Shown here: positions 24,867 to 47,083 of the stretch, piece by piece
Layout of the letters: every line of letters starts with the position of its first letter
How positions within the stretch are numbered: position 1 is the first letter of the stretch
Source of the DNA: an uncultured Verrucomicrobiae bacterium
Lineage (GTDB): Bacteria > Verrucomicrobiota > Verrucomicrobiia > Palsa-1439
Length of the DNA stretch: 64,000 nucleotides
Assembly (NCBI GenBank): GCA_963812605.1
Contig: CAWEWF010000001.1
Span: 320,001-384,000 of the forward strand
Direction of reading: 5' to 3'
Translations under genes and position numbers: made by a program
Notes under the pieces: model-generated
Seen by the model: the letters and a program-made list of their open reading frames with translations, nothing else
Databases searched by the model: none
What the model was told of the DNA's origin: nothing

Positions 24867-26868
24867 TCACGGCCCTCCCTGCAATCGTGCGAGCGCTTTT
24901 GTGGCGGGAACAAAGTCCGGGTGGAGTTTCAGGGCCTGCTCGTATTGCTCGGTCGCCTCCGGCGTGCGGCCCATCTTTTCCAGGGCGAGCCCCAGATTGT
25001 AATGGGCCTCGGCGTAATCGGGACGGAGTTGCAGCGCTTTCTCGTAGTGCACAACGGCATCCTCGCGCTTCCCCAGTCGGATCAAGGCGGCGCCCAGATT
25101 ATTGTGTGCTTCGGCGGAGGCGGGTTTGATCCGCAATACCTGCTCGAAATGCGCGATGGCTTCCTGCAGTTTGCCCGATGCGAGCAGGGCCTTTCCCAAG
25201 TTGTTGTGTGCCGCGGCGTAGTCGGGATCAATTCGCAGGGCCTGTTCGTAATGTTCGATCGCGTCTGGGAGCTTCCCCGTTTGGAGGAGCGCGTTTCCCA
25301 TGTCGTAGTGGGCCTCGGCGTAATCAGGCGTGCTCCGCAGCGCCTGCTGATACTGGGCCATGGCCTCCGCGAATCTTGCCCGTTTGCAGCAAGGCGATCC
25401 CCAGGTTGCAGTGCGCTCCGGGGAAGTCGGGATTGATCCGCAGGGCTTGCTCGTACTGTTGGATTGCCTCCGGCAGCTTGCCCTCCCGGAACAAAACAAC
25501 ACCGAGATTGCTGTGGGCCTCGGCGTAATCGGGATTTATTTGCAGCGTCTGCTCGTATTGGTCGATGGCCTCGGCGAATCTACCAGCTTTCGACAGTGCA
25601 TCCCCGAGGTTGCTGTGCGCCAACCAGGCAGACGGATTTTTCGCCACGTTGTCACGCCACAGTGTTTCCTCATTTGCGTAGACACCGCTGCGTCTCCACG
25701 TGGCGGTTCCCAGCAACATCAAAGCGACGCTACTCACGACGATTGCAATCGACCGACCTTGTTCGCCGATGCGGAAGCAAATTCTCTCCCCACCGGCCAC
25801 GACCAAGGCGATGACGCCGATGATCGAGAAGTATTGCCAGTGATCCGCCACCCACGAGTACCGATGAAAGGTTTGATTAAAGAATCCCAACACCGGGAAG
25901 AGCATCACCACAAAATATCCCAGCCCGAAGAACCACGGCCGTCCCCACGTTTTGCGTTTCCACCAGAACACCACCAGACAACCTAGCAAGATCATTCCCG
26001 GCACGTACGATACCCAGGACGAGGTATCAATCACCCACTTTGGATAAATCACGGTCAGGTCAACCGGCAGCAACGCCTTGGACAGATAAAACCAGGGCAC
26101 CCAACCTGCGGCAGCCACGCGCGAGAGAAAACCGTCCGTCCGGTTCGCGTGTCCTCCCAGACCATGGTCATGCTGAAACCAAACGGTTGCCAACCCGAAA
26201 GCCAGTGAAAGAACAAAGAAGGGCAGACTGGTTAAGAAGTCTTTCCATCGCACCTTGGCCCGCAACCACCAGACACAGATCGATAGTGCAACCGGTAACA
26301 TGACAACCGCGCTCTTGCTAAGCAGTGCCAGCAGGAACATCGATAATGAGAGGCCATACCAGCGCCAGCGACTCGTTCCATCAAACCGCAAGTAGCAAAG
26401 GATCGTCAGAGCGTAGAAGAACATCGAGAGAGTGTTCTTTTGCTCGCTGATCCAGGCAACCGTGGCGACGTTCACCGGATGAATGGCGAATACAAGTCCC
26501 GCCACCCAGGCGCCGGGAATCTTGAGGCGTCGCAAGATCAGCCACACCAGGACGGCGTTGACGGCGTGTAACAATACATTGACGATGTGGTAGCCCATCG
26601 GGTTGGCACCCCACGACCGCCACTCCAGCCACCACAGCGTGTATGTAAGCGGCAGGTATTCCCCCGCTTCCGTCGTAAACCAGAACTGATGCAAGCCGTC
26701 GGTGGCGTGGATCAACCGATTGTGGACGATCAGGCTATCATCGTCGAAGACAAAGCCCCCGCGCAGCGCCGGAAAGTAAGCCACGAATGTAAAGACCATC
26801 AGGATCACGGCCAACAGCCAGGGACGCTGGATCAAGCGGGCTTTCATTGACGGAGACGACACAACCAT
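24867..26868 (-). CDS. TMTC-like GT-C membrane protein with C-terminal TPR array, frameshift near 25380
   Basis: FVFDDD, GYHIVNVLLH, FAIHPVNVATVAWISEQKN, LLSKS, ADHWQY, then about seven EAHNNLG-type TPRs. Confidence 0.88.
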
Positions 26869-26988: not shown

Positions 26989-27233
26989 ATATCGTAAATT
27001 GATAATTTTACTGGACACAAGGGTTTGGCAGGGATATATTCCGGGCGGTTCTTTGACAGCTCGACGCTCCTTGCTAGAGCCTCCCAGTGATGCAGCCTTG
27101 AGGGAAGGAAGAATCGAAAAAACATGTGTTTCTGCGAAACGAACCCGATTTGTCATCGTGTAGTTACATGCGGATGTATCAGGGCTGCAAATAGGTGTGA
27201 CCAGCAGATGGATTTTTCCAATCCGGTTCGTTT
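26989..27233 (+). repeat. composite dispersed element, copy 1 (palindrome + promoter + 33-mer + inverted AAACGAACCC pair)
   Basis: 29-mer at 26989-27017 matches the reverse complement of 46751-46779 at 27/29; 33-mer at 27119-27151 is identical to the reverse complement of 46417-46449. Confidence 0.85.
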
Positions 27234-27249
27234 GGCGAGAAATGACGGA

Positions 27250-27310
27250 CCGCGCGCGACGTTCGCGGCTACAACAGAAGATCGGAAAACGGGCGGGACG
27301 CCCATTCTAC
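27250..27310 (-). repeat. two GTAG REP-like hairpins
   Basis: On the minus strand: GTAGAATGGGCGTCCCGCCCGT and GTAGCCGCGAACGTCGCGCGCGG. Confidence 0.6.
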
Positions 27311-28593
27311 TGGGGAAGTTCGCGCCAATTCAGGCGTCGGATATTTTCGCAGTGGTCCTGGGTGAAGGAATTTGTTTGGGCGGCGAGCCTTACGTTTTTG
27401 AAGGTGATATTTTTGGCGTAACTACAAGTGACGCCGTTGGTGCCGGAAAGGTCGAGATCGGTAAGCGTGACGTTTTGGATGGGGCATTCTTCGAGGCCTT
27501 CGATGGCGCAGCACTTGCCGGAGTTGCGGGCGGTGACGTGGTCGACATGGATGTCGCGAAAGAGTGGGGTGCGGTCGGAGAACGGCTCAATGGGGGTTTT
27601 GGTGTAACGCAGGGAGAAGATGATGGCGTTGCGGACATTGTTGAGGCGAATGTGAGAGGCGACGATGTCCTCGACGATGCCGCCGCGGCCGCGGGTACTT
27701 TTGATGCGGATGCCGTTGTCGGTGCCGTCGCCGTCGCAGTCAAGGAAGCGAACGTGACGGACGCCGCCGGATTCTTCGCTGCCAATGGCGCAGACGCTGT
27801 GGGCGTGGGCGACGTGGCAGCGGATGTAGGTGACATATTCGGTCGGGCGATTCATTTTGCGGCCTTCTTCGTCGCGGCCGGACTTGATGCCGAAACCGTC
27901 ATCGCCGACATCGGCGAAGCAATCATGGACGACCACGTGGCGGCAGGAGTCGGTGTTGAGGGCGTCGGTGTTGGGAGAAGTGGGCGGGTTGATCATTCTG
28001 CAATTACCCACGTCAATGTGCTCGCTGTAGAGCAGGTGAACGGCCCAGAAGGGGGAATTGATGAAACTGGGGCCATTGATGCGGACATCGGTGCAGTCTT
28101 TGATTTGCAACAGCATCGGGCGGCGACGAATGGGGCGATTGGGGCGGGCGTTACCGTGCTCGGCCATGTCCATGGTGGCCCACCAGGCCGAGCCCTGTCC
28201 GTCGAAGGTACCGGGGCCGGTGATGGCGATGTGGTGAAGGCCGTTGGCGAAGATGAGGGGGTGAGGGCCATTTTCAGTGAGACCTTCCCAACGCGAGGTG
28301 ATGTCGGGGTATTTCGCGCGGTCGGTTTCGAAGAGCACGACGGCGCCGCTGGCGACATAAGGGTCATGTTGTCCACCATGTCGATGGGGCCGGTGAGTGA
28401 AACTGCCAGCAGGGACGCGGACGATACCGCCGCCGGCTGATGGCAGGCGGCGATGGCCTGACGAAAGGCGTCGGCGTGGAGTCATTGGACATCGAGGGCA
28501 CTATAGTCAGTGATATTGAAAACGGGGCTGGAGGGCGGTCGTGAAACTGCGACCGTATTCTTGCCAGTGGCACAACTCATGAGAAGAGCGCAT
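27307..28593 (-). CDS. glycoside hydrolase family 28 (polygalacturonase-like); 5' part frameshifted, start approximate
   Basis: FNITDY, GGGIVRVPAG, SPNTD, GDD, IGSE, GIRIKS. Confidence 0.88.
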
Positions 28594-44964: not shown

Positions 44965-45993
44965 CTATCCTTTGGTTAGTCGTTTCGCCGTCAACCGCGC
45001 ATTGAGTTGATCGAGCACCACCGCGATCACGATCGCGCTGCCGATGATGATCCATTCGTAGTTTTGGTCGAAATGCAATTGGCGGATCGCCTGCCGAATC
45101 AGCACGATGAGCACCGCCCCCAGCATGGCGTTGATCGCGCTGCCTTTGCCGCCGCTCAGGCTCGCGCCACCGACCACCGCCGCCGCGATCACATATAACT
45201 CGTAGCCCGTCGCGTCCCCGCACGTCGCCGAGCCATAATAACTGATCCCCACAAACGCCGCGATGCCGGCGGTCAATCCCGACAACGCGTACACGCCGAT
45301 CAGGATTCTTCCCAACCGCAACCCCGAGTAACGGCTGGCTTCCGCATTGCCGCCAATCGCGTAGATGTGCCGCCCCATCACCGTTCGCGAGAGATAAATC
45401 GCGCCGAGCGCCGTGACCGCGAGCATCACCAGCATCGGCACGGGATAAAGGGCCGAACTCGAGCCGAGGGTCGTCTTGACCACGCTGGTCAGCGCGTCGG
45501 GCACGAGGATGCTTTCCGCCTTGCTCGTGACAAACGCAATGCCGCGAAACACCCACATCATCCCCAGCGTAATGATGAATGGATGCACCCGCAGCCCGAC
45601 CACCATCACGCCGTTGGCCAGCCCGCACAGCAGGCCGATTCCCAGGCACAGCGTCAATGCCGCCAGCACCGTCACAAAAGGGTTGGAGAATTGCCACGAC
45701 CGCAACGCCAGCGCCATCGTGGTCCCCGCCAGCGCGTACGTCGAGCCCACGGACAGATCGACGCCGCCCGAGATGATCACCATCGTCGCCCCGACCGCCA
45801 TGATCGCGAAAAAACTCGCGTCCGTGGCCGTCTGCGTGAGCGTGTAGAAGTTGAGGAAGTTGTTGACCGACCGGCCCGTCATGCGGTCCACGTGCGAACC
45901 CGCAAAAACGGTGAGCACGGCCCCCAACAGCAGGATCACCAGGATCAAACCGGACTGCTGGGCATTGAAAACGCGGCGAATCGTCGGGTGCAT
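44965..45993 (-). CDS. sugar ABC permease (RbsC-like)
   Basis: GGVDLSVGS, PFIITLG, YAIGGNAEASRYSG, YELYVIAAAVVGGASLSGG. Confidence 0.95.
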   Translation of the reverse strand: MHPTIRRVFNAQQSGLILVILLLGAVLTVFAGSHVDRMTGRSVNNFLNFYTLTQTATDASFFAIMAVGATMVIISGGVDLSVGSTYALAGTTMALALRSWQFSNPFVTVLAALTLCLGIGLLCGLANGVMVVGLRVHPFIITLGMMWVFRGIAFVTSKAESILVPDALTSVVKTTLGSSSALYPVPMLVMLAVTALGAIYLSRTVMGRHIYAIGGNAEASRYSGLRLGRILIGVYALSGLTAGIAAFVGISYYGSATCGDATGYELYVIAAAVVGGASLSGGKGSAINAMLGAVLIVLIRQAIRQLHFDQNYEWIIIGSAIVIAVVLDQLNARLTAKRLTKG

Positions 45994-46218
45994 GAAAATC
46001 CGCCGCCAGATTAGCGGCCAAAGCGCAAATTGCAAGCATTCGGCTAGCTCCTCCGGCTCGCCTGAATGTGGGAGGGACTCACCGTCGCGACTCCCATCCG
46101 CGTCCTCCCGGTCCGTCATGCTGAGTCCCGTCATGCGACGGGATCCCGCAGGATTGCGGGACTTGTCGAGGCATCTCCCACGACACCAACAACCCTTCTA
46201 ACAACCAGAGCACCCCTG

Positions 46219-46779
46219 CGAACCCGACTACTATACACTTTATAGCGTCAGGTAGCTTCGTTTCTCTGGAAACGAAGCCATTCTCACGAAAAATGCACCT
46301 CCTAGACCCCTCAAGATGGGTTCGTTTTCGAAAACGAACCCATTCAGAAAATGCTACTGGAAGCGGTGCAACCTGCCGTAAATAAAAGTGATGCATCGAA
46401 AAATGTGCGTCAAATAAAATCGGGTTCGTTTCGCAGAAACACATGTTTTACGGCTTCGTATCCTCCCGCGATGGTTCCTGCACCCAAATGGGCAGCCTGC
46501 CGTAGTGGCGCGGGCGTCTCGCCCGTGTCCTTCCGCCTTCGAGTTGAACAGGCGTCCCGCCTGTATTTCCTTAACCGCCCATTTGCCACCCGCCGCTTGG
46601 CCTTCGTAGCCTTGTCAAAGCAGTCTCGCCGTGCTGCCTCCGAATTGTAGGGCTTGCCCCGATTTCGAGATCGGGGCGAGCGTCCCGCTTGCCGCTGTTA
46701 ATCTTCCGTTCATAATCTCCGCGCTAATTCTAACGCCCGCCAGCACACCCTGTCCAGTAAAATTATCGATTAACGATAT
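46219..46779 (-). repeat. composite dispersed element, copy 2
   Basis: Shares the 29-mer and 33-mer with copy 1; perfect 28-bp palindrome at 46316-46343; hairpin at 46255-46278; internal REP cluster at 46502-46697. Confidence 0.85.
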
Positions 46780-46866: not shown

Positions 46867-46949
46867 TGTCACCCTGAGCGAAGCGAAGTGTCTCTGTCGT
46901 TTGGGAATCCTCGGAACACCAGAGATTCTTCGCTTCGCTCAGAATGACA
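46867..46949. repeat. inverted REP doublet (BIME/REPIN-like)
   Basis: TGTCACCCTGAGCGAAGCGAAG...CTTCGCTTCGCTCAGAATGACA. Confidence 0.85.
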
Positions 46950-47083
46950 CCACCCTTTGAGTTGGCATTTGTAGAGGAATTCTGTTCTCACAACCACCTT
47001 CCTAAAATCTGACTCGTGCACCCGACGCGTCAAATCACCAAATTGACATTGCATCGCGTTTTCAGCAGGGGCACAATTACTGC

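Follow-up and report, generated by a model that had tools for sequence, protein, structure and literature searches.

The two related loci in the window, the 64-kb stretch of DNA analysed here (C1:320001–384000 of the source genome, G000), are very probably non-autonomous, gene-less copies of a cassette. In its full form this cassette is composed of an operator box with a promoter, a gene of the STGP protein family and a unit of about 97 bp bounded by inverted arms. The assignment is based on co-occurrence: the STGP gene is coupled to the arms and shares the box and promoter with the window loci, which we therefore regard as cassettes after gene loss. The best reading of these loci is that of orphans left by a pac-like, terminase-only cassette; our confidence in this proposed mechanism falls slightly short of even.

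Copy 1 lies on the forward strand and opens with a TATCG-N5-YGATA palindrome (26990–27004), an operator-like, element-specific box located directly upstream of the −35 hexamer of a predicted sigma70-type promoter, TGGACA-N17-TATATT (27012–27040). This promoter is followed by the 9-mer GTTCTTTGA (27048–27056), which occurs identically in the rRNA operon of G000, in the leader at −197 and in the spacer, and which we take to be boxA-like. The 33-mer at 27119–27151 combines the left arm with its conserved upstream context, which in full cassettes is situated 3′ of the STGP stop codon. The 97-bp unit, the proposed pac-like wrapping site, spans 27137–27233 between 14-bp inverted arms at 27137–27150 and 27220–27233, and contains a centred dyad at about 27173–27197 and T-tracts with a 10-nt period, all on the same strand. 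The promoter side of copy 1 borders an accessory TPR/PMT-type gene (24867–26868, reverse strand) that is absent from this site in the congener G006 and replaced by a different gene in G012; G000 carries 2158 nt extra on this side. The TPR/PMT gene shows an apparent frameshift near 25324–25502 and is one of a family whose paralogs are numerous in each genome of the genus. On the arm side the element adjoins a conserved GH28 gene (27307–28485, reverse strand) in G000, G006 and G012, so that copy 1 is indeed aimed at the 3′ end of a convergent gene, as a sequence-only reading of the window had stated.

Copy 2 lies on the reverse strand, where the palindrome TATCG-N5-CGATA (46764–46778) precedes a predicted promoter, TGGACA-N18-TAGAAT (46727–46756), and the position in which the gene would stand is filled by REP-like hairpin modules (46450–46720). 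The 33-mer and a 100-bp unit together occupy 46332–46449, with arms at 46418–46431 and 46332–46345 that belong to non-matching types. Extra arm copies are present beyond the unit (46255–46327), two of them direct (46319–46327 and 46255–46263) and one inverted (46270–46278). The arm side of copy 2 faces a conserved sugar ABC permease gene (44965–46134, reverse strand), and this site is also filled in G004, G006 and G012. Upstream of copy 2, at 46869–46950, we observed a REP-like 84-nt imperfect palindrome with high contig depth in two runs.

The sequence-only reading had paired the two loci through shared modules, and the individual matches were reproduced: the 29-mers are identical at 27 of 29 positions (26989–27017, forward, and 46751–46779, reverse), the 33-mers are identical throughout (27119–27151 and 46417–46449), both promoter-like hexamer pairs are present, and the inverted arm GGTTCGTTT closes the 97-nt unit (27137–27233) as well as the 100-nt one (46332–46431). 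Two of its statements require qualification. The DNA between modules had been called unrelated, which does not wholly apply to the DNA between the arms, where the centred dyad and phased T-tracts recur. REP-like hairpins had been placed at both loci; those of copy 1 are mostly in its flanks, its interior comprising just ~60 nt.

A search of the genome and its relatives for these motifs, which the same reading had proposed, identified about 64 elements in G000. The genome contains 37 A-type (promoter) and 62 B-type (arm) sites; a slightly wider B pattern gave 69 raw matches, of which 5 were discarded by eye as chance, leaving 64. The palindrome is located 108–446 nt upstream of 57 of these 64 B sites, compared with 7.3% of 3000 random windows; 50 of the 64 carry an inverted arm and 8 represent a short variant. 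This co-occurrence is far beyond chance and supports the earlier suggestion of selection on motifs and their spacing. The exact TATCG-N5-CGATA box is found 36 times in G000, and spacers of 3, 4, 6 and 7 nt are found 5, 1, 3 and 1 times, respectively. The predicted promoter is also supported, as the 17-nt spacer is kept in 28 of the 37 A-type copies (18 nt in 2, no −10 match in 7); GTTCTTTGA stands just past the −10 box in 13 of the 37. Between promoter and unit, REP-like hairpins of a single orientation form a mosaic filler (CTAC 59, GTAG 6 in 57 G000 element interiors). The neighbours of the 64 dispersed copies are unrelated to each other, and leading-strand bias is weak (39/64, p 0.10). The B motif is present in 17 of 17 congeners, at 1–139 copies (72 sites in G006, 139 in G012), and in none of 13 other genomes, and the taxon labels of close protein relatives are Verrucomicrobiota. 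No recent near-identical copies were found among 69 sites, the best true pair being 88% identical over 206 nt.

The unit is 95–100 bp long with 14-bp inverted arms, and is exactly 97 nt in 29 of 48 distinct G000 units. Left and right arms covary at positions 10–14 in the G000 units (permutation p ≤ 0.001 each). In a pool of 139 units, which includes relatives and a few units counted in both orientations, the two arms are identical at positions 5–14 in 89 cases (shuffle mean 16, maximum 30), and 10 arm types can be distinguished. Arm type partly tracks descent (interior identity 0.47 vs 0.40). At the copy-1 site, the two arms agree within each genome, being GAAGCC in G012 but GAACC in both G000 and G006. 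The unit interior features a centred dyad in which A38 and T60 are near-invariant, and AA/TT steps recur with a 10-nt period (p 0.0005 by position shuffle of 73 related sequences). In the short variant the dyad is shifted 20 nt towards the arm, and CAA-N4-TTR, which we presume to resemble the IHF consensus, is present in 8 of 11 such units; its CAR-N4-TTR part is kept in the 73 97-mers. The dyad, the phased AA/TT steps and the short variant with its 20-nt shift fit the marks expected of duplex DNA bent around a protein, and the earlier suggestion of a protein-binding site array is supported. The accompanying suggestions of a non-coding RNA or short peptide are not. An Rfam search of the window at gathering scores returned no match, RNAalifold of 73 gap-free 97-mers folded the terminal 14-bp stem and gave no consensus structure in the interior (z −0.13), arm mismatches show no G-U preference (12 GT/TG vs 16 AC/CA), and the ATG of the proposed peptide (MCFCETNPI) is missing from many copies. 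In lineages other than this genus, the second arm frequently takes the form of a direct repeat ~80 nt further on, which makes pairing impossible there and thus argues against a closing-stem RNA.

The gene coupled to these sites belongs to the STGP family, which comprises 36,214 clusters at E ≤ 0.001 and matched no Pfam or NCBIfam model and no transposase family. G000 encodes two ORFs of this family, ending 28 nt before an arm, with the ANRRNARRSTGPRTAEGK motif complete in one and altered in the other, and has two full cassettes (C14:81730–82746 and C14:216272–217144). Of the 17 congeners, 15 carry the family, as does one of the 13 other genomes. The arm motif was identified within 400 nt after 70 of 78 STGP genes and before only one of them; these usable loci represent 80 taken from 164 confirmed, minus 2 that were too short. 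The coupling extends to a metagenome set of 80 loci (29–72% GC), of which 51 had a closed ORF and sufficient flank: the motif lies at the 3′ end of the gene in 26/51, compared with 2/42 upstream controls. A complete A promoter precedes one STGP gene of G004 (L028), and the box is also found at the promoters of at least four more such genes, at L024, L027, L044 and L049. On reading, at least four further full cassettes (L025, L029, L033 and L050) have a divergent small HTH-like gene and another promoter upstream of the STGP gene and lack the TATCG box. Inspection of ORFs revealed no large terminase beside the gene of the C14:81730 copy, and an integrase-like ORF was seen, by reading, near one full copy only.

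The elements are polar, with foreign DNA on the promoter side and conserved genes past the unit. We compared 800-nt flanks with G000 for 30 of the 72 G006 sites and for 40 regions spanning part of the 139 sites in G012, yielding 66 loci with a box and full flanks. Homology was confined to the arm side at 43 loci and to the promoter side at 2, with both sides homologous at 10 and neither at 11 (sign test 6e-11, an overstatement because the genomes compared are related). Loci with a convergent next gene show the split as well (13 vs 0), so that transcription of the neighbouring gene from the element promoter does not suffice as the cause. The promoter side is lower in GC at 52 of 64 G000 elements (54.8% vs 60.2%), and strong NCBIfam matches among G012 neighbours, based on crude gene calls, number 4/42 on the promoter side and 18/42 on the arm side. 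The cargo side is not enriched in TIRtron-end motifs (8 vs 5 of 66; 5 vs 5 of 69).

Sites are also reused between species. At 22 of 53 sites the element is beside a gene homologous to that beside an element in G000, and at five sites that we read the subtype and cargo differ among species. The copy-1 site is occupied in G006 and G012 as well, with different left neighbours in all three genomes, and no element is present in 8 other congeners, whose neighbours differ; for the copy-2 site, 8 more distant congeners have no element. Filled and empty sites both exist, and the empty ones are 82–89% identical, too diverged for a fixed junction to be read. The contigs of four DNA runs contained no strain-level empty site. 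We detected no general target duplication in 57 elements (flank repeat scores 8.9 vs 8.7 in controls); a 20-nt direct repeat does flank the G004 copy at the copy-2 site, and is not general.

The sequence homology of STGP proteins to phage small terminases is limited to an N-terminal motif. A viral protein scoring above the PF05119 cut-off (26.1 vs 24.7 bits), encoded upstream of a 613-aa gene and a Mu-type portal gene, has 52 N-terminal columns in common with the STGP family (hhalign 98.2%, 44% identity), including an STGP...NAxKHG motif. A haloviral protein with this motif, encoded near a Terminase_6N gene, matches the HGGxSTG model weakly. Comparison of the family with 75 YqaS-like viral proteins gave an hhalign value of 64%, exceeded by 1 of 40 block-shuffled controls, and searches of Pfam, NCBIfam and PHROG returned no terminase match for STGP members. 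Structure models of two STGP proteins are essentially all-helical (mean pLDDT 75 and 86) and had no match above background in the PDB and BFVD, which is no proof of a new fold. The Atlas model of a 189-aa member aligns with a P27 small-terminase cluster at TM 0.44/0.56 over 101 residues, below the service's bar; its nearest clusters are unnamed, one of them (TM 0.69) having Uroviricota as its commonest taxon. The conserved columns include Tyr, Arg and a single His residue and contain no HUH motif.

Modeling predicts that the STGP protein self-assembles as a homo-oligomer. Four copies of a short member gave an assembly score of 0.74 (best control 0.00). In the calibration, 20 of 30 proteins solved as pairs passed the mark, as did 1 of 23 single chains; the present job is unlike this calibration. 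The runs agree in at least 80% of contacts with pLDDT ≥ 71, two different faces are involved, and residues 1–45 are not among the listed interface residues. Another G000 gene, with the exact box upstream and no arm after it, matches phrog_426, a terminase small subunit (E 1.4e-6), and its Mu gp27-like product is a candidate box-binding protein. Two stand-alone Mu gp27-like (phrog_426) genes are located at C10:210313–211002 (L063:1814–2503, the one with the box) and C11:2518–3135.

In phages themselves STGP is nearly absent, and this counts against the pac reading. A tblastn search of 50,697 phage records found no match, alignment to viral contigs found none, viral scans gave few relatives overall, and an STGP gene was near 2 of 80 viral arm-motif loci; the family was recovered from one plasmid. 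PF05119 is present in 1 of 201 genomes of the phylum. At L235:4845–5839 an STGP gene and three arm copies stand ~60 nt from the end of a 36-kb viral contig, which may be a genome end or an assembly break. On another viral contig (L242:1–4953) the STGP gene adjoins genes of the lambda-exonuclease family and of ParB-like type and, by reading, an ERF-like gene, which suggests a link of STGP to phage-type recombination modules.

Based on these observations, we propose that STGP is a small-terminase-like, self-assembling DNA-binding protein that would bind the AAACGAACCC arms and wrap the intervening DNA, with its phased, IHF-type bends, into a pac-like site. An infecting phage would supply the large terminase and capsids; this helper is assumed because no Terminase_6N match was found in 18 genus genomes, a search directed at that one large-terminase family. 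Cleavage would take place in or close to the unit, and packaging would run in a single direction, across the promoter side into upstream DNA. The fragments reaching recipients would all end at the unit and would differ in where their other end lies. Copies already present in the recipient would be reused for landing, and any genes located on the packaged side would spread. Such a mechanism would account for the polarity, for the reuse of sites with differing subtypes and cargo, and for the absence of a transposase and of target duplication. The 10-nt AA/TT period and the short variant with its 20-nt dyad shift are consistent, at the level of sequence, with wrapped duplex DNA. According to PMC4737164, SPP1-type small terminases are rings that favour ~100-bp bent DNA, and the SPP1 pac site covers the promoter and gene start. 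The arm unit lies 3′ of the STGP gene, counter to this placement, and the lack of recent near-identical copies is a further point against the pac reading. The arm covariation suggests base pairing or copying from arm to arm, which the pac model does not need.

In common with phage small terminases and their pac sites (SPP1/SF6 G1P and the P27 family, PF05119; PMC4737164), the cassette has the N-terminal motif of the PF05119 protein, a predicted self-assembly through a helical core, and repeats with phased, bendable DNA of ~100 bp beside the gene. Unlike them, the STGP gene has no neighbouring large terminase, portal or capsid gene and is not part of a packaging operon, the site is 3′ of the gene, and there are dozens of gene-less chromosomal copies. 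In lateral transduction, accessory and defence genes are reported to lie on that side of pac and attachment sites towards which packaging proceeds (PMC12829572). PICIs and SaPIs likewise resemble the proposed system as terminase-only parasites that need a helper and keep accessory genes on one side of the packaging site, packaging here being a proposal; in contrast, no integrase, primase or single attachment site was seen with the cassette, which reaches 139 copies per genome.

The main competing explanation, which we consider unlikely, takes the unit for the fixed terminus of a one-ended element of IS91/ISCR type. Either by itself or in partnership with an HUH enzyme of host origin or RAYT type, STGP would nick the arm hairpin, copy leftwards through variable cargo and insert without target duplication. 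The position of the site directly 3′ of the gene, the polarity at all loci and at convergent genes alike, the existence of filled and empty sites, and the conserved Tyr, Arg and His of STGP would all suit this explanation. The covariation across 10 matched arm types would suit single-strand pairing, and a one-ended element explains arm pairing better than the pac model does. IS91 and ISCR elements (PMC13181058) similarly have their cis site downstream of the gene, insert with no target duplication and have variable DNA on the other side, and the cassette shows the one-sided capture of adjacent DNA that characterises them. They differ in that STGP is modelled as all-helical and is devoid of the HUH (Y2) motif. 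No tetranucleotide target was found at the empty sites, which at 82–89% identity are too diverged to read one. The N-terminal motif common to STGP and terminases, the phased T-tracts and 20-nt deletion variant, which suit duplex DNA, the lack of a readable fixed junction and the absence of young copies also weigh against a one-ended element.

It is improbable that the elements are architectural or insulating sites kept by the host, bound by STGP or host proteins, with a strong promoter reading away from foreign DNA and accessory genes gathering behind them as the only place where insertions are tolerated. RIB/BIME-1 elements consist of two inverted repeats around an IHF site, and the old, diverged copies at the same places in different genomes (22/53 in common with G000), CAA-N4-TTR in the short variants (8/11) and the conserved promoter with its boxA-like 9-mer would fit a comparable role. 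Their inverted repeats around the centre recall the arms of the unit and its putatively IHF-like interior. REP/BIME-1 (RIB) sequences and REPtrons/TIRtrons (PMC3733652) are also intergenic and multicopy, with REP hairpins within or beside them. The cassette differs in having its own operator and promoter, in its strict polarity relative to accessory DNA, and in that the gene coupled to it does not encode a tyrosine transposase. Host-kept sites would not be expected to range from 1 to 139 copies in one genus or to vary in subtype and cargo by species at one site, and the polarity persists where a convergent downstream gene cannot use the promoter.

Very improbable is a passive origin as cargo or degenerate MITEs spread by known transposases of TIRtron or RAYT type, with the 14-bp arms as terminal inverted repeats. 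One G012 copy (L118) does lie within a unit that has GGTAGTGTCC ends together with a direct repeat of 7 bp, and the corresponding site in G000 is empty; the interiors are REP mosaics. However, the L118 layout is 1 of 45 in G012 and is not general in G000, the arms enclose the 97-bp unit alone and leave out promoter and gene, the unit seldom occurs without the promoter (box in 57/64), and neither target duplications, near-identical recent copies nor a transposase match for the coupled gene were found. Least probable of all is that the promoter yields a family of functional small RNAs or peptides in which the arms form a closing stem, since the conserved promoter, the boxA-like 9-mer, the strand-oriented REP hairpins and the compensatory arm changes are set against the lack of an Rfam family, interior structure and G-U bias, a start codon that is not conserved, and the direct-repeat arms of other lineages.

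The cassette does not fit the definition of a MITE, an IS91/ISCR element, a PICI, a structured RNA or a member of the SOS regulon, and its gene is not in a packaging operon. We rate it as an undescribed, new kind of element with a proposed mechanism. Literature searches on the motifs AAACGAACCC and HGGxSTG, Verrucomicrobia repeats, small terminases, pac sites and lateral transduction, Solibacter paralogs and orphan terminase copies returned no description of it among the openly accessible articles listed. With ~60 copies nearly always at junctions of foreign and core genes, it may be a new gene-moving device. At dozens of sites in a genome, accessory-gene regions are bounded on one side by a fixed sequence, and a family of more than 36,000 clusters with no Pfam or NCBIfam model is now tied to a defined DNA site, so that its function can be tested at once. 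If the packaging reading is true, dispersed, helper-dependent packaging starts would decide the entry and exit of foreign genes by a route outside prophages, satellites, integrons and insertion sequences; if STGP itself mobilises the element, it would be a mobile-element enzyme of unknown chemistry. The widest form of the pac reading is rather doubtful in our estimate: STGP and its cis site would form a minimal terminase-only gene-transfer parasite, and in Verrucomicrobiota, as in other bacteria of soils and sediments, each chromosome would contain tens to more than 100 orphan pac-like sites. Every such site would be a one-way port for loading and delivery of accessory genes by phage particles, amounting to prophage-free lateral transduction.

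Several further features of G000 were observed in the course of this analysis. A C12/C6 pair at 99% identity was rejected as a new insertion, being a whole-region duplicate: the sequences near C12:4987 and C6:318008 are 99.4% identical over at least 3 kb, which represents duplication or assembly redundancy. A role of the box as an SOS (LexA) site was likewise rejected, as TATCG-N5-CGATA does not occur upstream of recA or of three lexA-like genes; the lexA-like gene at C6:113561 (reverse strand) is preceded by TGTAC-N4-GTACA, a likely SOS box for this lineage. A second left-end motif with repeated CTTCCAAA is located at C14:81588–81697 and also at C11:67944, C13:47756, C11:813 and C14:361554; some elements have it instead of, or together with, the A promoter, and it also precedes several STGP genes.
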